From Rhizobium sp. Q54 (GTDB lineage Bacteria > Pseudomonadota > Alphaproteobacteria > CADEGL01): a stretch of DNA of 58,458 nt. The position numbers were made by a program, and so were the translations under genes. The stretch lies in the NCBI GenBank assembly GCA_945860095.1, contig CAMAPP010000003.1, positions 1 through 58,458 of the forward strand, in the 5' to 3' direction. The notes beneath the pieces are model-generated. The model did no database searches. It was not told the DNA's origin and worked only from the letters and a program-made list of their open reading frames with translations. Below, piece by piece: positions 15,679-49,341 of this stretch. Position 1 is the first letter of the stretch, and every line of letters begins with the position of its first letter.

Positions 15679-16905
15679 CTACCGCGCCATGGCGATGATC
15701 TCGATTTCCGTCATCATCCCTTCCATCGCCAGGAACTTGACCGGCACTCCGGTCGAGGCGGGACCCGGCTCGGTGTAGCGGGCGGAGCGGATGCGCTGAT
15801 TGGCCACGATGGTGTCGGGGCCCGCCGCACCGACATAGAAGGCGTTGTTCTTCACCGCGTCGTCGAGGTTCAGGCCGAAGCCGTCCAGCACCGTCGCGAT
15901 ATTGTCCATGGCGATGACGGTCTGCTTCAACAGATCGCCCTTCTCGAGCACATTGCCCTTGGCATCGAGCGCGACCTGGCCGCCGACGAAAACCATGTCG
16001 GCGCATTTGAGGCCGTGCTTGTAGGGCAAGTGAATCGGCCAATCCCAATGGCCCTGCGGCCAGACATGCTGGCGCGGCAGGCTTTTCCCGTCCTCGCCCA
16101 GCATGGCGACGAGTTCCATGCGGATCATCTCGCCGTCGGGCAGCCAGGGCACGGGCAGGCCGGTCGCGACCGGACCCGGTTCCTTGAAAAACCGTGCGCG
16201 GACCTCGGCCGCCTTTTGCCAATCGGCCGTGGTGCCCTGGCCGACATACCAGATGTTGAACTTGACCGCGTCGTCGAGCGTCGCACCGAAAGGTGCGAGC
16301 ACCTTGGCGAGATTTTGCATCACCAACTCGCTCTGGCGGACGATATCGCCCGGATGCAGCACGCGGCCCACTTCGTCGCGCGCCGATTGGGCGCCGACAT
16401 GGATCATCTGCCCGCAGCGCACCGCATGGGCCAGATTGGGCGCGCCCGTCGGCTGATGGCGGGGCGGCTCCGAATGGGATTTCGCCAGAACCTTGCCGTC
16501 GGCGCCGCGCATCGCGACCGGCTCGATCTCGACCATCATGCCGGGATAGGCAAGCCACGGCAGCGGCACCGCCGTGATCGCCGGGCGCGCGCCGGGCGGC
16601 AGCTGCGCCGCGACGTGCGCGAGGAACGCCCGTTCGTCCACCGTGCCGTCATTGACGTAGAACGCGACCAGTTTCACCACATCGGCGTGATCGGCGTCGA
16701 AGCCCGACAACACCGTGCGGATGTGTTTCATCACGGTCGCGGTCTGGGTGTTCAGGTCGTACAGGTTCAAGCACTTGCCCTTGATGTCCTTGTCCACCTG
16801 GCCGCCGACATAGATCATCGGCCCGCAACGGCAGCCGTGCTTGAACGAAAGATGGATGAGCCAGTCCCAGTGGCCGGGCGGCCAGTAATGCGAGCGCTTG
16901 AGCAT
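15679..16905 (-). CDS. Protein of three tandem RidA/YjgF-like domains (408 aa)
   Basis: Three ~135-aa repeats, each with xGGQV/GAQS, L..FG....D.VK and EIE/MEL-VAM; domains 1 and 3 share WPxGHWDW. Confidence 0.85.
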
Positions 16906-17078
16906 GGAGTTCCCCCTGTTCGGTATCGCCGGATACCGCCGGCAAGACGGTAGAAAGAATCCCCCGTGTCCGCCAGTGCCCCGGCGCGCGACGCCCGGAC
17001 AAGCGCCTGCCTCCCGTGCGCGGCGCGACGCCTTGGTGCGCGCGCCTTGAAACAAGAGCGCCGATTGAGAGTTTCATC

Positions 17079-18200
17079 GTGACGGAAAGCGCCGATTGCG
17101 TGGTCATCGGCGCGGGCGTGGTCGGCCTGGCGATCGCACGCAGGCTCGCCCTGGCGGGGCGCGAGGTCCTTATTCTGGAGGCAGCCGAGAGCTTCGGCAC
17201 CGAGATCAGCTCGCGCAATTCCGAGGTCGTTCACGCCGGCATCTATTACGCCAAGGACAGCCTGAAGGCGCGGCTGTGCGTGACCGGACGGCGCGCGCTG
17301 TACGCGTTTTGCGTCGAACGCGGCATCGCGCACAAACGCACGGCGAAGCTCATCGTGGCGACCGAGGACGCCCAGCTTCCCGCGCTCGCGCGCCTGGCCG
17401 AAACCGCGGCGGCGAACGGCGTGGACGATCTGGTGCGCCTGTCTTCGGCCGAGGCCATGGCGCTGGAGCCGGAGCTGGCATGTGTCGCGGCGCTGCTGTC
17501 GCCCTCGACGGGCGTGATCGACGGCCATGGCTTGATGCTTGCCTTGCTTTCGGAGGCCGAGGGACGCGGCGCGACCTTCGCCGCGCATGCGCCCATTCTC
17601 GGCGGGCGAATCGGCAAGGGTTTTATCGAGCTCGAAATCGGCGGGCGGCACGCGATGGATCTCCGCGCGCGCACGGTCGTGAACGCGGCGGGCCTCGGCG
17701 CGAACGCGGTGGCGCACGGTCTTGCGGGCTTTCCCGCCGCGCGCGTGCCGAGGCTGTATTACGCCAAGGGCTGCTATTACACCTTGTCGGGGATGCGCCC
17801 GCCCTTCGCGCGGCTCATCTATCCCATGCCGGTCGATGCCTGGCTTGGCATCCACGTGACGGTCGATCTCGGCGGCCAGGTGCGCTTCGGGCCGGATATC
17901 GAATTCGTCGATAGCCTCGATTACGCCGTCGATCCGGCGCGGGCCGAGCCGTTTTATCGCGCCGTGCGCAGCTATTGGCCGGCCCTGCCCGACGGCGCCT
18001 TGCAGCCGGGCTATGCCGGAATCCGCCCGCGCCTCGTGCCCAAGGGCACGCCCGCGCCCGACTTCGTCATCGAAGGCCCGGCGGCGCATGGCGTCGCGGG
18101 TCTCGTCCATCTGTTCGGCATCGAATCGCCGGGTTTGACCTCGTCTCTCGCCATCGCCGACCACGTCGCGGCGCTATTGGGCGAGGGCCACCCGGCCTAG
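17079..18200 (+). CDS. FAD-dependent oxidoreductase, L-2-hydroxyglutarate oxidase (LhgO) family
   Basis: [28 protein letters not shown] and [14 protein letters not shown] motifs. Confidence 0.88.
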
Positions 18201-23207: not shown

Positions 23208-23717
23208 ATGGCGAATTCGCTCCCGACCGCGTCCCGGCCGCGCACTCCGCCTGCGGGGCACGACCATGAACATTGCATCGCCGATGCTCTCGCCAAGGCC
23301 GAGACGATCTGCGAGCGGCACGGCGCGCGCCTCACGCCCATGCGCCGACGGGTTCTGGAATTGGTCTGGCAAAGCCATCGGCCGGTGGGCGCCTACGATC
23401 TGCTCGACCTTCTCAATGCCCGCGGAAGGCGCCACGCACCCATCGCGGTCTATCGCGCGCTCGATTTTCTGATCGAGCGGGGCCTGGTGCATCGCTTGGC
23501 GTCGCGCAACGCCTTCATCGGCTGTTCGCATCCGGCCGAGCCGCACACCGCGCAATTCCTCATCTGCGAGCGCTGCCACGCCGTGACCGAACTCGAGGAT
23601 AAGGCGATCGCCGGCGCCATTCGGGCCGGCGCCAGCCATCTCGGCTTTACGCTTGCGGCTCACGTCGTGGAGGCGCAGGGCGTGTGCGCGACTTGCCGGG
23701 GGCAGGTTTTGCCCTAG
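23208..23717 (+). CDS. zur: Fur-family regulator, Zur type
   Basis: HDHEHC, RLTPMRRRVL, VYRALDFL and two CxxC motifs (CERC, CATC). Confidence 0.85.
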   Translation: MANSLPTASRPRTPPAGHDHEHCIADALAKAETICERHGARLTPMRRRVLELVWQSHRPVGAYDLLDLLNARGRRHAPIAVYRALDFLIERGLVHRLASRNAFIGCSHPAEPHTAQFLICERCHAVTELEDKAIAGAIRAGASHLGFTLAAHVVEAQGVCATCRGQVLP

Positions 23718-24660
23718 GCCCCGTGCCGCCGGCCGGCTTTGTCTTGGGCGCGGCACCGAGCGCGGCGCGCGCGCTGGCCTCGTTGAGCTTCTGCCACGGG
23801 AAATAAAGGTCGAGCCAGTGCGAAAGGCGACCTACGGCCATGATCGCCTCGTCGAGCACCGCCGCGCGGTCGTCCTCGCCGACCAGCGCGTCGGCGAACA
23901 GCGACAAGGTGCGCGCCGTTTCGTGCAAACCCAATAGGCCGTCGAGCTGGGCGGCGGCGCCCCGGATCAGCATGGCCGCGGTTCTGGCCTCGGCGTCCGA
24001 GCCGGTCTCGCGCACCAGCCACAGATTTTCGTGCAATTTGCGCAGCTCCGATTCGGCGAAGAAGATCGGCCCGAGCGGCAGCATCACGCCCTCGCGCGCG
24101 CGCAGGCGCTCGAATTCGCGCGGCATGCCCGACCAGGCGCGCCGACGCGCCGACCGCGCGGCCTGTAGCGAACGCCCCGCGTCCGCGTCCGCGGTTTGCG
24201 CCACCTCGCCGGGCAGAATTGGAGCGGCTTGGGCGGCGCGCGCGAGCTCCGCGCGCCATGCGCCGGAGCCTGCGCGCAATTCGGCCCACACGGTGCGCCA
24301 GCCATGGTCCTTTTGTACGATCTTACCGATGCGCGCGAGGCCGTCGAGGCCCGCGCTCACCTGACCGAGAATGGTGACGCTCGCGGTTTCGTCCTGGAGC
24401 GGCCCGAACATGATCTCGAGGAATTGGCGCTTGGGGTAATAGATGAACGCGCCGGGACCCACGCCTTGGATGTCGCGCGCCGATTCGAGCGGCATGACGA
24501 ACGGCGCCGGCCAAAGGATTTGATCGCCGGCGATTTTCGCGCAGTGCAGATCGACCCGCGCGGGCAGGCTATCGACCAGGGCTTGGGCGGTACGCGGCGC
24601 GGCGGCGATGTCGAGCGCGATTTCCACCCGCACGCCCTCGGCCGAAAGAATCAATGCCAT
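23647..24660 (-). CDS. Uncharacterised cyclophilin-like + helical-bundle protein, McbB/cucumopine-synthase-like (337 aa)
   Basis: HCAKIAGDQIL, LEIMFGPLQDE, RRAWSGMPREF and SHWLDLYFPWQ resemble recalled McbB segments. The ORF is certain; the family call is recall-based. Confidence 0.6.
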   Translation of the reverse strand: MALILSAEGVRVEIALDIAAAPRTAQALVDSLPARVDLHCAKIAGDQILWPAPFVMPLESARDIQGVGPGAFIYYPKRQFLEIMFGPLQDETASVTILGQVSAGLDGLARIGKIVQKDHGWRTVWAELRAGSGAWRAELARAAQAAPILPGEVAQTADADAGRSLQAARSARRRAWSGMPREFERLRAREGVMLPLGPIFFAESELRKLHENLWLVRETGSDAEARTAAMLIRGAAAQLDGLLGLHETARTLSLFADALVGEDDRAAVLDEAIMAVGRLSHWLDLYFPWQKLNEASARAALGAAPKTKPAGGTGPRAKPAPGKSRTRPAPPRREPQA

Positions 24661-24667
24661 CTTGTCC

Positions 24668-24736
24668 GTCTCCCGCGCGTCTCGCCGTTCCGGCGAGCAT
24701 GTCTCCCGCGCGTCTCGCCGTTCCGGCGAGCATGTC
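24668..24736. repeat. Perfect 33-bp tandem duplication containing a hairpin
   Basis: GTCTCCCGCGCGTCTCGCCGTTCCGGCGAGCAT x2; CTCGCC-GTTCC-GGCGAG stem. Confidence 0.95.
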
Positions 24737-24840
24737 ACCCGCCGCGCACCCCGGGCAAGTACGGTGGCGCGGATCGCGCGAATCGGCTATGCCTGCCATT
24801 GTCCGTTAAGGGCGATTCCACCGATTCCGGGAGATTATTC

Positions 24841-25371
24841 GTGCCCGATAGCGCGCAGCAAATAGACTGGCCCAGCCAGATCTTCGACGTCCTCAAGGAA
24901 TACGACGTGCGCCAGGTCGCGCACGTCCCCGATGCCGGCCATGCGCGGCTGATCAAGATGTGCGAGGCGGATCCCGCCATGCGCACGGTCACGCTCACCA
25001 CCGAGGAAGAGGGCGTGGCCATGCTCGCGGGCGCCTATTTGGGCGGCCAGCGCGGTTGTCTGTTGATGCAGTCGAGCGGTGCCGGAAACACGATCAATGC
25101 CTTGTCCCTGGTCAAGACCTGCCGGATTCCGTTCCTGACCGTCATCACGATGCGCGGCGAGTGGGGCGAGTTCAATCCTTGGCAGGTGCCGATGGGCCTG
25201 GGCACGCGCGCAGCCCTCGAGGCGATGGGCATCGCGGTGCACGACGCGACCGAGCCGGGCGCGGTGCGCGATGCGGTCGAGGCGGCGGCGAAGCTCGCCT
25301 TTCACTCCTTTCAACAATGCGCGGTGACGATTTCCCAGCGCGTGCTCGGCGCCAAGGCGTTCAAGGACTAG
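24841..25371 (+). CDS. TPP-dependent decarboxylase alpha subunit (ComD/phosphonopyruvate decarboxylase-like)
   Basis: VPDAGH, TTEEEGVA, LLMQSSGAGN and MRGEWGEFNPWQVPMG motifs; GTG start. Confidence 0.85.
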   Translation: MPDSAQQIDWPSQIFDVLKEYDVRQVAHVPDAGHARLIKMCEADPAMRTVTLTTEEEGVAMLAGAYLGGQRGCLLMQSSGAGNTINALSLVKTCRIPFLTVITMRGEWGEFNPWQVPMGLGTRAALEAMGIAVHDATEPGAVRDAVEAAAKLAFHSFQQCAVTISQRVLGAKAFKD

Positions 25372-25375
25372 AACC

Positions 25376-25960
25376 ATGCAACAACTCGAACGCCGCGCCA
25401 CGGTGCGCACGCTGCTTTCCAATCGCGGCGACATGCTGTGCGTGACCGGCCTCGGCGGCACGTGCTGGGACGTGGCGGCGGCGGGCGACAGCAAGATGAA
25501 TTTCTATCTCTGGGGTGCCATGGGTTGTGCTGCCATGGTGGGGCTGGGCTTGGCTCTCGCCCAACCGGATCGCCGCGTGCTGGTGGTGACGGGCGATGGC
25601 GAGGCGCTCATGGGACTCGGCGCGTTCGCGACCATAGCCGTGCAACGCCCGAAAAATCTGGCGATCGCGGTCGTCGATAACGAGCATTTCGGCGAAACCG
25701 GCATGCAGCCCACCCATACCGGCTCGGGCGTCGATCTTGCACGCGTGGCCGAAGCCGCGGGCTTCGCCGCGACCACCGTGGCGCGGGACGATGCGGGGCT
25801 GGCCAGGGCGACGGCCATGCTGCGCGAGGCGCCGGGGCCGGTGCTCGCCGTGCTCAAGGTCGATACGGCGAAGCAGCCGCTCGTCATGCCGCCACGCGAC
25901 GGCGCCTATCTCAAGGATCGCTTCCGCGAGGCGCTGCTCGGCAAGGCGGCGATCGACTGA
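25376..25960 (+). CDS. TPP-dependent decarboxylase beta subunit (ComE-like)
   Basis: NFYLWGAMG and GDGEALM...DNEHFGETG TPP-binding motif. Confidence 0.87.
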   Translation: MQQLERRATVRTLLSNRGDMLCVTGLGGTCWDVAAAGDSKMNFYLWGAMGCAAMVGLGLALAQPDRRVLVVTGDGEALMGLGAFATIAVQRPKNLAIAVVDNEHFGETGMQPTHTGSGVDLARVAEAAGFAATTVARDDAGLARATAMLREAPGPVLAVLKVDTAKQPLVMPPRDGAYLKDRFREALLGKAAID

Positions 25961-25976
25961 TGTTCGGGTTGGCGCG

Positions 25977-26918
25977 ATGCGCGCGGCGCTTGGGCACCCG
26001 CTAGCCGAGTATCTCGACATCGCGGGCGAATTGCGCGCGGCCTTGCGCGCGGGCGATCCGGTGGTGGCGCTCGAGTCCTCCGTCATCGCGGCGGGCCTGC
26101 CGCGCCCGCACAATCTTGCCGCCGCGCGCACCTGCGAGGCGGCGGTGCGCGCCGAAGGGGCGGTGCCCGCGACCATCGCCGTTCTCGGCGGCCGGATCAG
26201 AATTGGGCTCGCGCCCGCCGAACTCGAAAACCTCGCCGCGCGCGACGATGTCGAAAAGGCCAGCCGCCGCGATCTGGCCCATCTGCTCGCGAGGGGGCGC
26301 GACGGCGCGACCACGGTCGCGGGCACGCTGGTGTGCGCGCGCTTGGCTGGAATCGCGATCTTCGCCACGGGCGGCATCGGCGGGGTGCATCGCGGTTGGC
26401 GGGATACTCTCGACATTTCGGCCGATCTCGAGGAATTGCCGCGCGCCAATCTCGCGGTGGTGTGCGCGGGCGCGAAATCCATTCTCGATTTGCCGGCAAC
26501 CCTCGAATATCTCGAGACCCGCGGCGTGCCGGTCATCGGTTACGGCACGGACGAGTTTCCGGCCTTTCATGCCAGGCGCAGCGGATTGCGCCTCGACCGG
26601 CGCGTGGACCGGCCCGAGGACGCGGCGCGGGTCATGCTCGCCCAGCGTCGCCTTGGCCTCGACGGCGCGGTGGTGTTCGCGGTGCCGTGCCCCGCATCGG
26701 CGGCGATGGACGAAGCCGTGCTCGACGGCCATGTGCGCGCGGCCGTTTGCGCGGCGACGGCCGCGGGCGTGCGCGGCCAGGCTCTTACGCCCTATCTGCT
26801 TGCGCGCATCGCCGAGGCGAGCGGCGGCGCCTCGCTCGCGGCCAATCTCGCGCTGCTCGAAAACAACGCACGGACGGCGGCGCGCATCGCCCAAGCCTAT
26901 TCGCGTCTCAAGATCTGA
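25977..26918 (+). CDS. psuG: Pseudouridine-5'-phosphate glycosidase (PsuG/IndA family)
   Basis: VVALESS, FATGGIGGVHRG, DISADL and CAGAKSILD motifs. Confidence 0.92.
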   Translation: MRAALGHPLAEYLDIAGELRAALRAGDPVVALESSVIAAGLPRPHNLAAARTCEAAVRAEGAVPATIAVLGGRIRIGLAPAELENLAARDDVEKASRRDLAHLLARGRDGATTVAGTLVCARLAGIAIFATGGIGGVHRGWRDTLDISADLEELPRANLAVVCAGAKSILDLPATLEYLETRGVPVIGYGTDEFPAFHARRSGLRLDRRVDRPEDAARVMLAQRRLGLDGAVVFAVPCPASAAMDEAVLDGHVRAAVCAATAAGVRGQALTPYLLARIAEASGGASLAANLALLENNARTAARIAQAYSRLKI

Positions 26919-27031: not shown

Positions 27032-28969
27032 ATGTTCGATGACAAGCCCGCGCCCGGCGCCGGGCGCACGATGGCGGAGATTCTCGCCGCTCGCCTGTCG
27101 CGCCGCGACGTCTTGGCCGGCGTGGCAAGTGCCGCCGCGCTGGCGGCGATGGGTCCGGCACGCGAGCTTGGGGCCGCGACGACCGGCGGGTTGACGTTCA
27201 AGGAAATCGCGCACGGCGCGGACGAGACCGTCCATGTGCCCGAAGGCTATCGCTCGGACGTGCTCATGCGCTGGGGCGATCCGGTTCTGGGCGACGCGCC
27301 CGCCTTCGAGCCGCGCGCCCTCACCGCCGCGGCCCAGGCCAAGCAGTTCGGCTACAACAACGATTTCCTCGCCTTCATGCCGCTGCCTTTGGGCTCGGCG
27401 AATTCCACGCACGGGCTTTTGGTGGTCAATCACGAGTACACCGTGCCGCAGCTCATGTTTGCCGGGTTGCAGGGCGGGGAATGGGACTATCAGGCCCGCC
27501 AGACCAAGGCGCAGGTCGATGTCGAGCTCGAGGCGCACGGTCTCTCCGTCATCGAGATAAAAAAGTCCAAGGGCCAATGGCGCGCGCTGCCGGGCGGCAC
27601 ATACGCGCGACGCATCTCCATGACGACCGAGATCGCGGTCTCGGGTCCGGCGGCGGGCCACGCACGGCTCAAGACCTCGGCGGATCCTTCCGCGCGGCGC
27701 GTCTTGGGGACGCTCAACAATTGCGCGGGCGGCGTCACGCCCTGGGGCACGATTCTCACGGCCGAGGAAAATTTCGACATGTATTTCGCCGGCAAGGCCG
27801 CGAGCGAGGCCGACCGGAAGCGCCTCGATCGTTACGGCTTCGGCGGCAAGCAGCGCTACGCCTTCGCCAATCACCACGCCCGCTTCGATTTGTCCAAGGA
27901 GCCGAACGAAGCCAACCGCTTCGGCTGGATGGTCGAGTTCGACCCCTACGATCCGAAATCGGTGCCCGTCAAGCGCACGGCGCTCGGCCGCTTCAAGCAC
28001 GAGGGCGCGGGCGTGACGCTCGCCCCCGATGGCCGTGCGGTGCTCTATATGGGCGACGACCAGCAATTCCAATATCTGTACCGCTTCGTCACGGCGAAAC
28101 CCTACGATCCCAAGAACCGCGCGGCGAACCGAGACTTGCTCGATTCTGGCACGTTGTCGGTCGCGCGCTTCGAAGACAACGGCGTGCTGCAATGGTTGCC
28201 GCTGGTTTGGGGCCAGGGGCCGCTCACGGCGGCGAACGGCTTCGAGAGCGAGGCCGATATTCTCATCGATACCCGGCACGCGGCGACGCTCGTGGGTGCT
28301 ACGCCCATGGACCGGCCCGAGGACGTGGACGTGAACCCGGTCAATGGCCGGATCTATGCCATCTTCACGAGCAATTCCAACCGCAAGATCGAACACGAGA
28401 ATGCCGCACGCAGGCCCGACCCGGCCAATCCGCGCGGCCCCAATCCATTCGGTCACATACTCGAATTGATGGCGCCGGGCGGTCCCACGAGCGCCGAGCA
28501 CGCGGCGCCCGCCTTCCGTTGGGACATCTTCATCCTCGCGGGCGATCCGCGCGTGGCGGACGTGGGCGCGCGCTATCACCCCCAGGTCTCGGCGAATGGC
28601 TGGTTCGGCGCGCCCGACAATTGCGCCTTCGATCCAAGGGGCCGCATCTGGATCGCAACCGACCAGGGGAACAATTGGACTCGCACCGGGACGGGCGACG
28701 GCATTTGGGCGTGCGAGGTCCAGGGCGCGGAGCGCGCGCTGACGAAGTTCTTCGCGCGCATGCCCCTCGGCGCCGAATGTTGCGGGCCGTGTTTCACGCC
28801 CGACGGCAAGACCCTGTTCGTCGCCGTGCAGCACCCGGCGGCGGACGGCGTGGGCTTGCTCGACTTCGAAAACCCCGTGACGCGCTGGCCCGATTTCAAG
28901 GCCGATATGCCGGTTCGGCCTTCGGTCATCGCCGTGACCAAGAAGGACGGCGGTCTTATCGGCGATTAG
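27032..28969 (+). CDS. phoX: PhoX-family alkaline phosphatase, Tat-exported
   Basis: SRRDVL Tat motif; FGYNND, NNCAGGVTPWG, GRFKHEG, MDRPED, PDNCAF and AVQHP motifs. Confidence 0.92.
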   Translation: MFDDKPAPGAGRTMAEILAARLSRRDVLAGVASAAALAAMGPARELGAATTGGLTFKEIAHGADETVHVPEGYRSDVLMRWGDPVLGDAPAFEPRALTAAAQAKQFGYNNDFLAFMPLPLGSANSTHGLLVVNHEYTVPQLMFAGLQGGEWDYQARQTKAQVDVELEAHGLSVIEIKKSKGQWRALPGGTYARRISMTTEIAVSGPAAGHARLKTSADPSARRVLGTLNNCAGGVTPWGTILTAEENFDMYFAGKAASEADRKRLDRYGFGGKQRYAFANHHARFDLSKEPNEANRFGWMVEFDPYDPKSVPVKRTALGRFKHEGAGVTLAPDGRAVLYMGDDQQFQYLYRFVTAKPYDPKNRAANRDLLDSGTLSVARFEDNGVLQWLPLVWGQGPLTAANGFESEADILIDTRHAATLVGATPMDRPEDVDVNPVNGRIYAIFTSNSNRKIEHENAARRPDPANPRGPNPFGHILELMAPGGPTSAEHAAPAFRWDIFILAGDPRVADVGARYHPQVSANGWFGAPDNCAFDPRGRIWIATDQGNNWTRTGTGDGIWACEVQGAERALTKFFARMPLGAECCGPCFTPDGKTLFVAVQHPAADGVGLLDFENPVTRWPDFKADMPVRPSVIAVTKKDGGLIGD

Positions 28970-37999: not shown

Positions 38000-38104
38000 T
38001 GCGCCCTCTTGCGCACATGGGGAACCGCTGGGGAAACCGCCTGGGCAGTCTATCATGGCGCTCGAGAAGGGCGAGGCGCACGACCGCGCCACAATATCGT
38101 CGCC

Positions 38105-38179
38105 GGCCCGTATCGGCCCGGCCCATATCGGCATGGCCCATATCGGCATGGCCCATATCGGCATGGCCCATATCGACGT
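38105..38179. repeat. 15-bp tandem repeat GGCCCATATCGGCAT x5 (three perfect)
   Basis: Units start at 38105, 38120, 38135, 38150 and 38165. Confidence 0.95.
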
Positions 38180-38341
38180 GGACGAACCGCTTGCGCCCAT
38201 TGTCTAGTGCTTGAAGTCTGGCGCGCGGCCAAGACGAATCGGACGGCGCCGGTTGTGGCCGGGCTCGATATGCCGCGCCGTCGCGCGCTTAAGGCTAGGA
38301 ATGGCTAGGGGAACGGGCGAGATGTTCGGCGGGGTTGGCGC

Positions 38342-45195: not shown

Positions 45196-48100
45196 ATGGC
45201 CAAGGCGGCAAGCAGGGCGGGGGCCAAGGCGGCAAACAGGGCGGGGGATATCGCGCTCACGATCGGCATCGCCCTCTCCCTGGGTTGGATCGCGATCGTC
45301 GCGCTTTACGTCGAATACGCCATCGGCTGGGATTCGCTGCTCACCCTGCTCCCGAGCGAGCTTGCGACCATCCTCGCCGGCGGCGCCACGCCCCTCGCGT
45401 TCCTGTGGCTGTTCATCGCCTATCTTCAGCGCGGCCGCGACGTCGAGCATGCCGCGCGCGTCATCGAGCAACAGTTCAGTCGTCTGGTCTTTCCCTCCAG
45501 AGAGGCCGAGGAACACCACGCGTCCGCCGCCCAATCGCTTGCCCTTCAGGCCGACCGGCTGGCCTCCGTGTCGGACATGGCTGCGGTCAAGGTCGCGGAA
45601 GCGACCGAGGTCCTCCGGCGCACGGCGGACGATCTCCTCGCCGCTTCGGAAAAGGCCGCGAGCGGCGCCACCCGATCCTCGTCCGCCCTCGAGACGCCGC
45701 TCGCGGCGATGAAGCAACTGGTCGAGACCATCGAGGCGCGCGGCGCGGTGGCGGGGCAGCGCCTGACCGAGCAAGCCCGCCAGATCAAGGAGTCCTCCGA
45801 GCGCGGCGCGGCCGAGGCCGAGGCCGCCGCCGATCGCCTTTCGCGCGAGACCGCGCGCCTGGGCGAGGTCGCCGATCGCTTGAACGAGGATGCCCTCCGC
45901 GCGGCGCGGGAACTCGAGGGCCACGCAAGCGCGCTCGCCGCCGAAGCTTCGCGCGCGAGCGGGGAACTGAAGGCGATCGAGGACGAGGCCGCGAAGCGCT
46001 TGCGCGGTGTCGCGGGCGCGCTCGACGAGGTGGAGCGGCGCGTGATGGGTCTCGATGAGACCTTCGCCGGCCACTCGACCAAGCTCGGCGCCGCCGTCGC
46101 GCAGGCGGGGGAGAAAGCCGAGGCGCTCGACCAAGTGCTCGCCCGCCAGGCCGGGACGTTGAAACAGGGGCTCGAGCGCGCGGGCGTGCTGTCTGCGGAC
46201 ATGCAGCGCGCGCTCGAACAACAGACCCGCGCGCTCGATTCGCTGTCGGAGCGCCTGAGCGTTCAAACCCAGTCCATGGAAGAGAGCCTCACGCGGCAGG
46301 TCGCGGCCCTCGGCACGGCCGGCGAACACGGCGCGGCGCAGGCGGCGGCCATCCGCACCCAGCTTCGCCAGCAGGCCGACGAACTCATGACCGCGGCGGC
46401 GCGCGCCTCCGAGCGGGCGAGCTCGCTCGGCTCCGAATTGCGCCAGCGCACCGAGGCCCTGGCCGCCGCGGCCGAGCACGTGGGGCAGCGCGCAACCATG
46501 ATCGAGGTCGCGCTCGGCGAGCGCGCGGCCATATTGCGGAGCGCAACCGACGACGCCGTGGGTCAAGTGCGCGCGACCGAACTGGCGTTTTCCGACCATC
46601 TCGAGCGCCTCGGCGAGGCCACCAAGCGCGCCGGCGTTCAGACCGCGGAAATCGAGAATACCTTGCGCGAGCAAGCGAGCGCGCTTGCGGTCTCGGCCGA
46701 CCATGCGGGCGCGCGCACGCACGCCGTGCAGGAGGCCCTGCAGCAGCAGTCCGCGTCGCTGCGCTCGGTCGTCGACGCCGCGGCCGAGCAGGCCGAGGAC
46801 ATCGGCCGCTATCTCGGCCAGCAGGGCCGCGATGTGGCGCGTGCCTCGGTCGAGGCGGCCCAGCAGGCGCGCCAGGCCGGCGAGACGTTGCGCGGCCAGA
46901 TGACCGAGGTGATCGAATCGTCGAACCGCGCCGAAGCCAAGGCGCGCGCGGTGGCCGAGACCTTGGCGCGGCAGGTCGTGGCCCTGTCGAACGCGGCGGC
47001 GAACGCCGCCGACCGGGCGGCCACGGTCGAAGCCACGCTGGCGCGAGAAAGCGAGGCGCTCGACCAAGCGACGGGTGCCGCCGAAGCGCGTCTGTTGGGC
47101 ATGGCGAAGGCGCTTGGCGAACAGGCGGCCGCCTTGTCGAAGGCCTCGGTCGAGGCCGCCCAATCCGCCGAGGCGGCGCGCGGGGCGCTGGCCGAGGAGA
47201 CCGGATTGCTCGCCCAAAGCACGACGGATTTGGGCGCGGCCGTCAAGGCGCTGGAGACGCTGTCGCGCGATCACGCGGCGGCGGTGGGCACGGCCACCGA
47301 ACGCGGCCTCGAAGGCGCGCGCGCGGCCGGCGACAACTTGTCGCGCGAAGCGCGCGCCATGGCCGAGGGCATGGCGGAACGTGCGCGCGCGATCGCTCTG
47401 TCCATCGAACAAGCCGCGCGCTCCCAGATCGCCGCCTTCGCCGACGCGTCCGCGGGCGCCGCCGCGAACGTGCGTGGCACCCAATCCCAACTCGAGGACC
47501 AGGCGCGCGCCGTGCAGACGGCCATCGAGACGGCGACGCGGGTGCAATCCGCCGTCTTGGAAGCGGCTTCGCGCGCCGCGCTGGCCGGCACCGACGACAT
47601 GATCGCCAAGCTCGGTCCCCGGGTGGACGGCGTCGCGCAGGCCTTCGCCGACCGGGTGCGGGCGCTTGTCCAAGGCATCGAAGGCGCCGTGCGCTTGCAT
47701 GTCGATGCCCTCGACGGCGCCACCGCGATTTCGGCCGAGCGAACGCGTGCGGCGCAGGACGCGGTCGGCGAACAGGTTCGCGGCGCGCTGGCGGCGATCG
47801 AGCAAAGTTTCCGCCTCCACATCGATACCGTTTCCGAGGCCACGCGCGGCGCGGGCGAGCGCACCGCCGTCTTCGGCGAGGCGCTGGCGGGCGAGGTGCG
47901 GGCGGTCGAACAAGGCTTCGCCGAACATTCGCGCGCCCTCGCGCACGCGCTCGAGGAACAGGTTCGCGCCCAGAGCCGCGCGATCAACGAAGCGGCCGAT
48001 TCGGCGGTCGCGCGCGCCCAAGCCATGCGCGAGGCGCTCGCCCTTCAAGCGCGCGCCCTCGACGAGGCGGTGCAGCGCCAGGTACGCGATGTATCCACCG

Positions 48101-49341
48101 TTTCCGACCGCACCGTCTCGCAATCCGATCAGATGCGCGCCGCCCTTCAGCGCGACATGGAACTTCTCGCACAGACAGCGGACAACGCCGCGGCAAAAAC
48201 CCAGCAATTGGGCCAGGGTTTCCAGGCGCGCGCGGACGAACTCGACGCCGCCGCCGACCGCGCCGAGGCGCGCCTGAATGCGGTCGGCGAGGCGTTCCGC
48301 CAGCATGCGGGCGAACTCGGTGCCGCCTCCGAGCGCGCCGCGGCTCAAGCCGGCGGCATCGGCCAGGTGCTGCGCCAGGAGGCGCGCGTTCTGGGCACCG
48401 CGACCGACCAGGCGGGCGAGCAGATGCGCCTCATCGGCGATTCGTTCCGCGCCCAGTCGGACCTATTGAACCAAACCAGCGCCCAGGCGGCCGAACAGAT
48501 CAAGCAGACGGGCACCGCGTTCCGCCGTCAGGCCGAGGCGCTGACGGCGTCGTCGGAGGCGGCCGAATCGCGCCTCGGCGTGCTTCGCCTCGCCTTTCGC
48601 CAGCAGGCCGAGGATTTGGCGGCTTCGTGCGACCGGGCAGCGCAGCAGATGCGCGAAATCGGCGTTTCCCTGCTCGACCGCGCCAAGCGCCTGGCGGACA
48701 CCTCGGGCGACGCGGCGGCACGCGTCGGCCAGGTGACCGAAGCGCTGCAATCGCAGGCCCACGGTTTCAACACCGCGCTCGAGCAGGCCGCCGTGACCGC
48801 CGAGCGCGTCTCGAGCGTATTCCGCACCCAGGCCGAGGCGTTGACGATCGCCTCGTCGGATGCGAGCCGGCGGGCCGAACAGGTGATCGAGGCCGAGCGC
48901 GACGCCGTGCGGCGGAGCTTCCTGCGCACGGCCAATCTCATTCTTCAGGATTTGAATTCGCTCGGCGTCGATTTGAACCGCGTGCTCGGCCGCCCCGTGA
49001 CCGAAATCGAGATGAAGCGCTTCCTCAAGGGCGAGCGCGGCATCTTCGTGCGCAGCCTGATCGATGCGGGCGAACGCGACATCGCGCAAAAGATCCGGCG
49101 GCGCTACGAGGAAGACGGCGCCTTCCGGGGCCATGTCGGAAAATACCTGACCCAGTTCGACACGCTGCTGGCGCAGGCCAATGCGACCGATCCCGAAAAC
49201 CTGCTGAGCGCCACGATCCTCACCGCCGATGTGGGCAAGGTTTACATGCTGCTGTCGCGCGCCATCGGCCGGACGCAACCCGATCTCGAGCGTGCGACCA
49301 TGGTCGAACCCTCGCCCAAGGGCGCAGAGCGCCTGCGATAG
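45196..49341 (+). CDS. Large membrane-anchored helical-repeat protein, TipN/GPR(RgsE)-like (1381 aa)
   Basis: Two N-terminal TM segments, about 1150 aa of Ala/Glu/Arg apolipoprotein-like repeats, and C-terminal FRGHVGKYLTQFDTLL...ADVGKVYMLLSRAIGR. Confidence 0.7.
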   Translation: MAKAASRAGAKAANRAGDIALTIGIALSLGWIAIVALYVEYAIGWDSLLTLLPSELATILAGGATPLAFLWLFIAYLQRGRDVEHAARVIEQQFSRLVFPSREAEEHHASAAQSLALQADRLASVSDMAAVKVAEATEVLRRTADDLLAASEKAASGATRSSSALETPLAAMKQLVETIEARGAVAGQRLTEQARQIKESSERGAAEAEAAADRLSRETARLGEVADRLNEDALRAARELEGHASALAAEASRASGELKAIEDEAAKRLRGVAGALDEVERRVMGLDETFAGHSTKLGAAVAQAGEKAEALDQVLARQAGTLKQGLERAGVLSADMQRALEQQTRALDSLSERLSVQTQSMEESLTRQVAALGTAGEHGAAQAAAIRTQLRQQADELMTAAARASERASSLGSELRQRTEALAAAAEHVGQRATMIEVALGERAAILRSATDDAVGQVRATELAFSDHLERLGEATKRAGVQTAEIENTLREQASALAVSADHAGARTHAVQEALQQQSASLRSVVDAAAEQAEDIGRYLGQQGRDVARASVEAAQQARQAGETLRGQMTEVIESSNRAEAKARAVAETLARQVVALSNAAANAADRAATVEATLARESEALDQATGAAEARLLGMAKALGEQAAALSKASVEAAQSAEAARGALAEETGLLAQSTTDLGAAVKALETLSRDHAAAVGTATERGLEGARAAGDNLSREARAMAEGMAERARAIALSIEQAARSQIAAFADASAGAAANVRGTQSQLEDQARAVQTAIETATRVQSAVLEAASRAALAGTDDMIAKLGPRVDGVAQAFADRVRALVQGIEGAVRLHVDALDGATAISAERTRAAQDAVGEQVRGALAAIEQSFRLHIDTVSEATRGAGERTAVFGEALAGEVRAVEQGFAEHSRALAHALEEQVRAQSRAINEAADSAVARAQAMREALALQARALDEAVQRQVRDVSTVSDRTVSQSDQMRAALQRDMELLAQTADNAAAKTQQLGQGFQARADELDAAADRAEARLNAVGEAFRQHAGELGAASERAAAQAGGIGQVLRQEARVLGTATDQAGEQMRLIGDSFRAQSDLLNQTSAQAAEQIKQTGTAFRRQAEALTASSEAAESRLGVLRLAFRQQAEDLAASCDRAAQQMREIGVSLLDRAKRLADTSGDAAARVGQVTEALQSQAHGFNTALEQAAVTAERVSSVFRTQAEALTIASSDASRRAEQVIEAERDAVRRSFLRTANLILQDLNSLGVDLNRVLGRPVTEIEMKRFLKGERGIFVRSLIDAGERDIAQKIRRRYEEDGAFRGHVGKYLTQFDTLLAQANATDPENLLSATILTADVGKVYMLLSRAIGRTQPDLERATMVEPSPKGAERLR

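Follow-up and report, generated by a model that had tools for sequence, protein, structure and literature searches.

Why should a gene resembling that of the Pictet–Spenglerase McbB lie beside a predicted 2-oxo acid decarboxylase and a pseudouridine-5′-phosphate glycosidase in the chromosome of an alphaproteobacterium? To our knowledge, few bacterial Pictet–Spenglerases are known (McbB, KslB and the cucumopine and mikimopine synthases), and each belongs to a secondary-metabolite or opine pathway. The locus that raises the question is on contig CAMAPP010000003.1 of Rhizobium sp. Q54 (GCA_945860095.1), in a stretch of 58,458 nucleotides (nt) that was analysed as a whole and is called the window here. 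An earlier note on this DNA, made from the letters alone, described a McbB-like gene separated by a divergent gap of about 180 base pairs (bp) from comD- and comE-like genes, with psuG following 16 nt later, and the spacing is exactly as it described. The answer that we favour, tentatively and at somewhat less than even probability, is that the locus consists of two probably coupled enzymes, the McbB-fold protein and the ComDE-like pair, together with an unrelated housekeeping psuG. The elements concerned are these:

23647–24660, minus strand: gene for the McbB-fold protein, 337 amino acids (aa), placed by direct frame reading and by independent gene calls on near-identical metagenome contigs
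24661–24840: divergent intergenic region of 180 bp between the McbB-like gene and comD-like
24841–25371, plus strand: comD-like (TPP_enzyme_N, PF02776), 176 aa, predicted alpha subunit of a split thiamine pyrophosphate (TPP)-dependent 2-oxo acid decarboxylase
25376–25960, plus strand: comE-like (TPP_enzyme_C, PF02775), 194 aa, predicted beta subunit
Between comE-like and psuG: gap of 16 nt
25977–26918, plus strand: psuG, pseudouridine-5′-phosphate glycosidase, 313 aa (Indigoidine_A, 396 bits, full length)

The G+C content of the window (65–73%) makes lists of open reading frames (ORFs) noisy; the map is drawn from direct frame reading and metagenome gene calls, and those independent calls agree on all four gene products. 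The McbB-like gene starts at the ATG at 24660, which is preceded by GGGAG. The GTG at 24738 offered by the ORF finder was discarded as an over-extension into a repeat.

A predicted McbB fold with a putative catalytic glutamate

The McbB-like protein scores 21.6 bits against Pfam DUF3830, below the cut-off of 26, and matches neither Cucumopine_C in Pfam nor any NCBIfam model. The cucumopine and mikimopine synthases combine DUF3830 with Cucumopine_C, and aligned members of the window protein's family approach the same composition, with weak DUF3830 matches in all 20 and weak Cucumopine_C matches in 5 of the 20; one distant member carries both Pfam domains. In the Protein Data Bank (PDB), a phmmer search found KslB at E = 0.009, with its two domains in swapped order, and the family profile retrieved only small cyclophilin-like proteins and, weakly, the helical domain of KslB. 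Neither the single sequence nor the profile detected McbB itself, and KslB stayed marginal (E 0.009–0.24).

Because sequence evidence alone was marginal, the fold was settled by structure prediction. An AlphaFold 2 model computed from 20 homologues reached a predicted local distance difference test score of 90.4 and a predicted template-modelling (TM) score of 0.85. Its best PDB match in Foldseek, over the whole chain, is McbB (3X27; E = 2.6e-10, TM 0.68/0.73, 323 columns), the marinacarboline Pictet–Spenglerase of Marinactinospora thermotolerans, and the two share the same domain order: an N-terminal cyclophilin-like barrel, which is DUF3830-like in the window protein, and a C-terminal helical bundle, which is Cucumopine_C-like. 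The next match is the barrel domain of KslB, from the kitasetaline pathway (KslB/AsKslB; 9NS6, 9K0A), which superposes with a root-mean-square deviation of 1.7 Å over about 137 columns, although the order of the KslB domains is permuted relative to the window protein.

The comparison with KslB also points to a candidate catalytic residue. Glu274 of KslB is essential and equivalent to Glu97 of McbB, and the C-terminal domain of KslB corresponds to the N-terminal domain of McbB (PMC12012969). In our alignment E274 pairs with E91 of the window protein, a residue that is invariant in 20 homologues and lies on the strand equivalent to that of the McbB glutamate; its equivalence to McbB E97 is drawn by transitivity through KslB, not from a direct alignment to the McbB sequence. 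Glu91 is thus, on the model, a putative catalytic general base. Further family invariants are H39, C40, K42, E59, R78, Q79, E82 and Q89. From the predicted fold and this residue we place the gene product in the McbB/cucumopine-synthase superfamily, as a genuine member that keeps the catalytic glutamate. The label McbB-like given by the earlier note is borne out by the full-length match to 3X27 and the retention of E91, and ‘hypothetical protein’ can be replaced in annotation by McbB/cucumopine-synthase-fold protein. The distance is nevertheless considerable: identity to McbB is 18%, McbB is actinobacterial whereas the window host is alphaproteobacterial, and no partner of the McbA or McbC type accompanies the gene.

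The family is not large, with 242 members at E ≤ 1e-3 among 1.84 billion representatives, a count that includes split and permuted forms. The two domains also occur as separate proteins, a barrel of about 130 aa and a helical bundle of about 150 aa (within P0181–P0305), and as a permuted fusion (P0207). The last 40 or so residues of the window protein form a disordered, low-confidence tail rich in Pro, Lys and Arg, which only the closest homologues (P0002 and P0003) have in common with it.

Two-subunit TPP enzymes beside the McbB-fold family

Scanning one genome per species yielded 75 loci with McbB-like homologues. Their neighbours were analysed with a home-made ORF caller and tblastn, and the counts of TPP enzymes come from tblastn, independently of the ORF caller. 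Among the 52 loci with at least 4 kilobases (kb) on both sides, a two-subunit TPP enzyme stands beside the McbB-like gene in 48 (92%): an acetoin-dehydrogenase-type E1 alpha/beta pair in 43 and a ComDE-like pair in 5, with neither in the remaining 4. ComDE and PsuG together adjoin the McbB-like gene in the seven closest loci (59–93% identity) and in none of the other 68. The neighbourhoods of homologues were the check that the earlier note had proposed, looking for a recurring comDE/psuG linkage and listing a lack of any co-occurrence with TPP enzymes among the outcomes that would refute its idea. Linkage to TPP enzymes does recur, whereas linkage to comDE and psuG is confined to one clade, and the usual partner is not ComDE but the acetoin-dehydrogenase-type E1. 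The recurrence extends across two non-homologous types of TPP enzyme.

The arrangement with E1 has the marks of an operon. In 51 of 53 Aco-linked loci the McbB-like gene and the aco-like genes share a strand, and in 12 loci, among them the closest outgroups of the window clade, the McbB-like gene is 18–78 bp upstream of acoA-like. Even a distant relative (L172, 7001–7879) occupies an operon of E1alpha, E1beta, a lipoyl protein, FAD_binding_4 and the McbB-like gene. The conserved form (L016–L083; for example L037, 5972–11897) contains acoA-, acoB- and acoC-like genes, often a ProC-like reductase, an SDR, the McbB-like gene, RidA and a 174-aa Cys/His-rich protein that matches nothing in Pfam or NCBIfam. 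It is accompanied by FAD amine oxidases, an OCD-family enzyme, an Asp/Glu-racemase-family protein, an amino-acid ABC transporter and a GntR regulator. The acoC-like product (lipoyl plus alpha/beta-hydrolase) scores 344 bits, above the cut-off of 307 for the acetoin dehydrogenase E2 equivalog.

Acetoin dehydrogenase operons (acoABC plus a dehydrogenase) are the nearest known counterpart, and in the same 43 of 52 loci the McbB-like homologues sit inside operons of the acoA–acoB–acoC–SDR type; the window, in contrast, has no aco genes and carries the ComDE-like pair in their place. We know of no classical aco operon with a McbB-fold gene, and a literature search on the McbB-like family, on DUF3830 and on Aco-type operons (aco with OCD and RidA, or with a McbB-fold gene) returned no relevant paper, so that the L016–L083 operon is apparently undescribed. 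The family is small, uncharacterised and mostly alphaproteobacterial, and what sets it apart is that its genes share operons with those of a heterodimeric TPP enzyme of the kind that splits the C–C bond beside a carbonyl and sets an aldehyde free; cultured carriers include Ancylobacter, Mesorhizobium comanense, Pararhizobium polonicum and Brucella gallinifaecis. With its transporters, GntR regulators, oxidases and RidA, the wider context looks catabolic (or detoxifying). McbB itself belongs to a secondary-metabolite cluster, whereas its relatives here keep company with TPP E1 complexes and catabolic-type genes.

The two partner types have their chemistry in common. Acetoin dehydrogenase E1 yields acetaldehyde and an acetyl-lipoyl group, and 2-oxo acid decarboxylases yield an aldehyde and CO2; on this established chemistry, both types release an aldehyde. 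McbB-type enzymes, for their part, use aldehydes and 2-oxo acids as co-substrates.

In the window the TPP partner is the ComDE-like pair, which has the same split alpha/beta TPP domain content as ComDE and Ppd. The comD-like product matches PF02776 with 34 bits. The best named relatives of the two subunits in NCBIfam are sulfopyruvate and phosphonopyruvate decarboxylases, and the best PDB match of the comE-like product is 9iz3_B, a putative phosphonopyruvate decarboxylase beta subunit (E = 8.6e-15). The scores, however, lie far below the equivalog cut-offs: 118.2 bits against 147.95 for TIGR03845 (comD-like), 133.7 against 221.5 for TIGR03846 (comE-like), and 65.9 and 114.2 against 312.5 for the phosphonopyruvate decarboxylase model TIGR03297. 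By these scores the pair would not be an orthologue of either decarboxylase, and an annotation as sulfopyruvate decarboxylase was rejected. The GDG...DNE TPP/Mg motif of the comE-like product is invariant across relatives, and comD-like is always directly upstream of comE-like in about 80 loci. The clade is huge (at least 8,000 clusters at 90% identity with E < 1e-20, many about 65% identical), and its contexts are diverse and mostly catabolic, with Rieske oxygenases, amidases, ABC and TRAP transporters, enoyl-CoA hydratases and, repeatedly, aldehyde dehydrogenases; neighbour clustering of 80 metagenomic loci gave no single conserved partner. Given the TPP motifs and the adjoining aldehyde dehydrogenases, predicted aldehyde-forming 2-oxo acid decarboxylase is a fair description of the pair.

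Coupling weighed against common descent

How, then, might the McbB-fold protein and the ComDE-like pair work together? We infer a coupling in the window lineage in which the ComDE-like enzyme would convert a 2-oxo acid to an aldehyde, and the McbB-fold enzyme would join such a carbonyl compound to an amine or amino acid as an iminium and close the ring in a Pictet–Spengler-type reaction to give a cyclic imino acid. The reverse reaction, as part of a degradative route, would be equally possible, the wider family being found in catabolic-looking operons. Elsewhere in the family the partner role would fall to the E1 alpha/beta pair, and in the window lineage to the divergently transcribed ComDE-like pair; psuG would travel with comDE in a housekeeping block and take no part in this chemistry. 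It is possible, and we put it forward a little more cautiously than the reading of the locus itself, that the McbB-fold family serves aldehyde-releasing TPP enzymes as a dedicated partner, that ComDE-like has displaced E1 non-orthologously in the window lineage, and that the conserved module makes or breaks Pictet–Spengler-type cyclic imino acids as a part of primary metabolism or catabolism and not of secondary-metabolite clusters.

Within the window clade the McbB-like gene and comD are divergent and adjacent in 9 of 9 members (59–100% identity), with the family invariants intact. The adjacency may also be a coincidence: an orphan McbB-fold gene, left over or transferred from an Aco-type catabolic operon, would have landed once between the zur/znu genes and an already existing housekeeping block (comDE–psuG–lhr–phoX–ctaA) and then been inherited, with ComDE-like, PsuG and the McbB-like protein each serving a process of its own. 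That account, which we regard as doubtful but as the most serious alternative, draws on several observations that weigh against coupling. In a tree of ComD plus ComE, all McbB-containing genomes group together as one clade, with the McbB-less ones as its sister, so the adjacency goes back to a single evolutionary event. The sister clade has the same comDE–psuG–...–phoX–ctaA block with other genes upstream (groESL in L169; SDR, AKR and DHDPS genes in L086 and L171). No McbB-like gene was found beside distant ComDE-like loci (80 metagenomic loci, about 45 of them adequately flanked). The ComDE-like family is huge and very diverse in its contexts. On the other side of the McbB-like gene the zur/znu flank is conserved too (L010–L015 and L170, the last with the order FUR–ABC_tran–ABC-3 beside it), and because it is just as conserved as the comD side, the adjacency may be inherited synteny within a window that is housekeeping throughout. 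The SDR, RidA, oxidases, transporter and GntR regulator of the Aco-type operons are missing at the window locus. When the 180-bp gap was aligned across the clade, some short motifs proved conserved, but no regulatory site or clear operator common to both genes emerged, and a search for RNA data on the window sequence matched only freshwater and lake DNA metagenomes. Finally, Pictet–Spengler activity is only predicted for every member of this McbB-like subfamily, and Arg256 and Lys264, which bind 2-oxoglutarate in KslB, are replaced by Ile73 and Phe80, near which the charged or polar invariants R78, Q79 and E82 are found.

What tilts the balance towards coupling is the family as a whole. With 92% of it TPP-linked, a TPP partner is very strongly to be expected beforehand, whereas the chance of landing beside one of the few two-subunit TPP genes is small, of the order of 1% as we infer it. 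The McbB-like gene has, moreover, stayed intact with all its invariants over about 40% divergence without its usual Aco partners. Functional coupling of the McbB-fold and ComDE-like enzymes is on these grounds somewhat more likely than coincidence.

Coupling need not imply ring closure. Instead of acting as a Pictet–Spenglerase, the McbB-fold protein could assist aldehyde-releasing TPP enzymes in an accessory or damage-control role, in which it might trap or process the reactive aldehyde or enamine or carry out another reaction of a cyclic imino acid; AcoX, whose role in classical aco operons is unexplained, would be comparable. Such a function would fit the linkage to two unrelated TPP types that are alike only in their chemistry (an aldehyde plus an activated acyl group or CO2), the RidA, ProC-like, OCD-like and FAD amine oxidase genes often found nearby, whose products all work on imines or cyclic imino acids, and the low identity to characterised Pictet–Spenglerases (18–24%) with loss of the KslB substrate-binding residues. 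We consider it unlikely, however, as the full two-domain McbB architecture and the catalytic glutamate are kept and the number of charged residues that never vary points to a specific pocket for a small molecule.

The earlier note had gone further and suggested that all four genes could form a cryptic pathway to a sulfonate- or phosphonate-bearing beta-carboline or opine-like compound, possibly C-ribosylated, with PsuG acting as a C-glycoside synthase; it also allowed for a matching catabolic route and for a coincidental linkage. In favour of this are the tight spacing of comE and psuG, the lack of a psuK in the window and the synthetic action of PsuG homologues such as AlnA. In about 45 ORFs of the window, small ORFs not being exhaustively covered, Pfam found no PfkB kinase (psuK), no phosphoenolpyruvate mutase (pepM) and no gene of sulfolactate or coenzyme M metabolism; the same absences had been claimed by the note, and those of pepM and the sulfolactate genes, with the decarboxylase cut-offs that the ComD/E-like pair misses, leave a product with a sulfonate or phosphonate group unsupported. 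An adjacent psuK is common but not obligatory, and a psuG on its own is no anomaly, since 5′-monophosphates come directly from RNA turnover. PsuG is also closer to Escherichia coli PsuG/YeiN (4GIJ; E = 4.4e-87, 295 bits) than to AlnA (E = 8.8e-59, 202 bits); it matches Indigoidine_A over its full length and, although no NCBIfam model matches it, has in common with the E. coli enzyme the Schiff-base Lys166 (mutated in the K166A structure 4GIM) and the motifs ALES, SRRDL and SADL. These orthodox catalytic residues argue against C-ribosylation and, together with the housekeeping, non-biosynthetic context, led us to reject a C-glycoside synthase of the AlnA/SdmA type; we regard PsuG as an ordinary pseudouridine-5′-phosphate glycosidase in a mixed housekeeping operon.

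Its position is likewise explained by descent. The closer ComE relatives (69–71% identity) all have the order comD–comE–psuG–(histidine kinase)–lhr–...–DUF6134–phoX–ctaA, in which psuG often overlaps lhr, and among the 80 distant metagenomic ComDE-like loci (55–67% identity) psuG occurs in none of the roughly 45 with enough downstream sequence. The comDE–psuG linkage is synteny by descent in a housekeeping block, and it is older than, or independent of, the event that brought the McbB-like gene alongside. PsuG is probably outside any pathway with the other three genes, and the four-gene pathway as a whole is very improbable; what endures of it, as plausible, is the two-enzyme module of a TPP enzyme and a McbB-fold protein, and the part that falls away is the third component.

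If the family is active, its linkage to TPP enzymes would give this fold a new physiological setting, point to a likely source of the carbonyl co-substrate and offer new biocatalysts. What is new is a known kind of enzyme in a new genomic setting, of which the window is a modest instance. For annotation, PsuG can be left as an ordinary glycosidase, and the TPP pair should not be named sulfopyruvate decarboxylase.

The divergent region and the rest of the window

The 180-bp gap contains a tandem repeat. Directly upstream of the McbB-like start, a 33-nt tandem duplication (24668–24742; 2.3 copies, 97% match, Tandem Repeats Finder score 143) has in each unit a 6-bp hairpin (CTCGCC...GGCGAG) and a Shine–Dalgarno-like GGGAGAC, and it supplies the Shine–Dalgarno sequence of the McbB-like gene. 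Its copy number is polymorphic, with one copy fewer in the near-identical contig L001 and in the 93%-identical metagenome-assembled genome locus L009. Upstream of comD, the motif GAATCGG(G/C)TA is conserved in L009–L015. Promoter and terminator scans of the gap found nothing above background; the McbB-like gene and comD-like each seem to have promoter-like elements of their own. No AT-rich palindrome resembling a Zur box is visible in the gap, and a connection of the McbB-like gene to Zur or zinc was set aside. The genes that flank the locus on either side are:

23208–23717, plus strand: Fur-family regulator gene (PF01475), probably Zur, which heads zur–znuC–znuB in relatives
27032–28969, plus strand: phoX, PhoX alkaline phosphatase gene, part of the conserved block comDE–psuG–(lhr)–phoX–ctaA

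The zur-like gene and the McbB-like gene are convergent and overlap by 71 bp (23647–23717), and the Pro/Lys/Arg-rich tail is encoded within this overlap. In the relatives L086, L169, L170 and L171, psuG is followed by genes for an Lhr-type helicase and a metallophosphoesterase-like protein and then by DUF6134, phoX and ctaA; L170 has the McbB-like gene and zur–znuCB upstream of the block. In the window the lhr segment has been lost or moved, so that psuG abuts phoX, followed by CtaA and a PAPS-reductase-family protein, and znuCB has moved to 7.9–9.7 kb.

A Pfam scan of the whole window (about 45 ORFs) identified folE, apaG, metZ-like, znuCB, an LIV transporter, purEK, zur, phoX, ctaA, PAPS reductase, pyrD, lysS, methylmalonyl-CoA mutase/meaB and cobST; the window is a housekeeping segment of the chromosome. 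Its sequence is found in freshwater and lake metagenomes, and the nearest genome records are uncultured Alphaproteobacteria.

Three other features stand apart from the locus. At 15682–18197, one chain of about 408 aa has three RidA (Ribonuc_L-PSP) domains and adjoins a DAO-family FAD oxidoreductase and the LIV-type ABC transporter (11.6–15.4 kb), an arrangement also present in L009. The genes of this region (11.6–18.2 kb) were compared with the RidA and oxidases of the Aco-type clusters and rejected as their counterparts, with about 26% identity or no match. A 1,381-aa ORF at 45196–49338, flanked by methylmalonyl-CoA mutase and an ABC exporter, has a strong coding signal (G+C at third codon positions 0.86) and no Pfam match. 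At 38100–38200, the annotated N terminus of a class IV aminotransferase ORF reads IWAMP four times over, which hints at a tandem repeat of 15 nt, located either at the true start of the aminotransferase or upstream of it.

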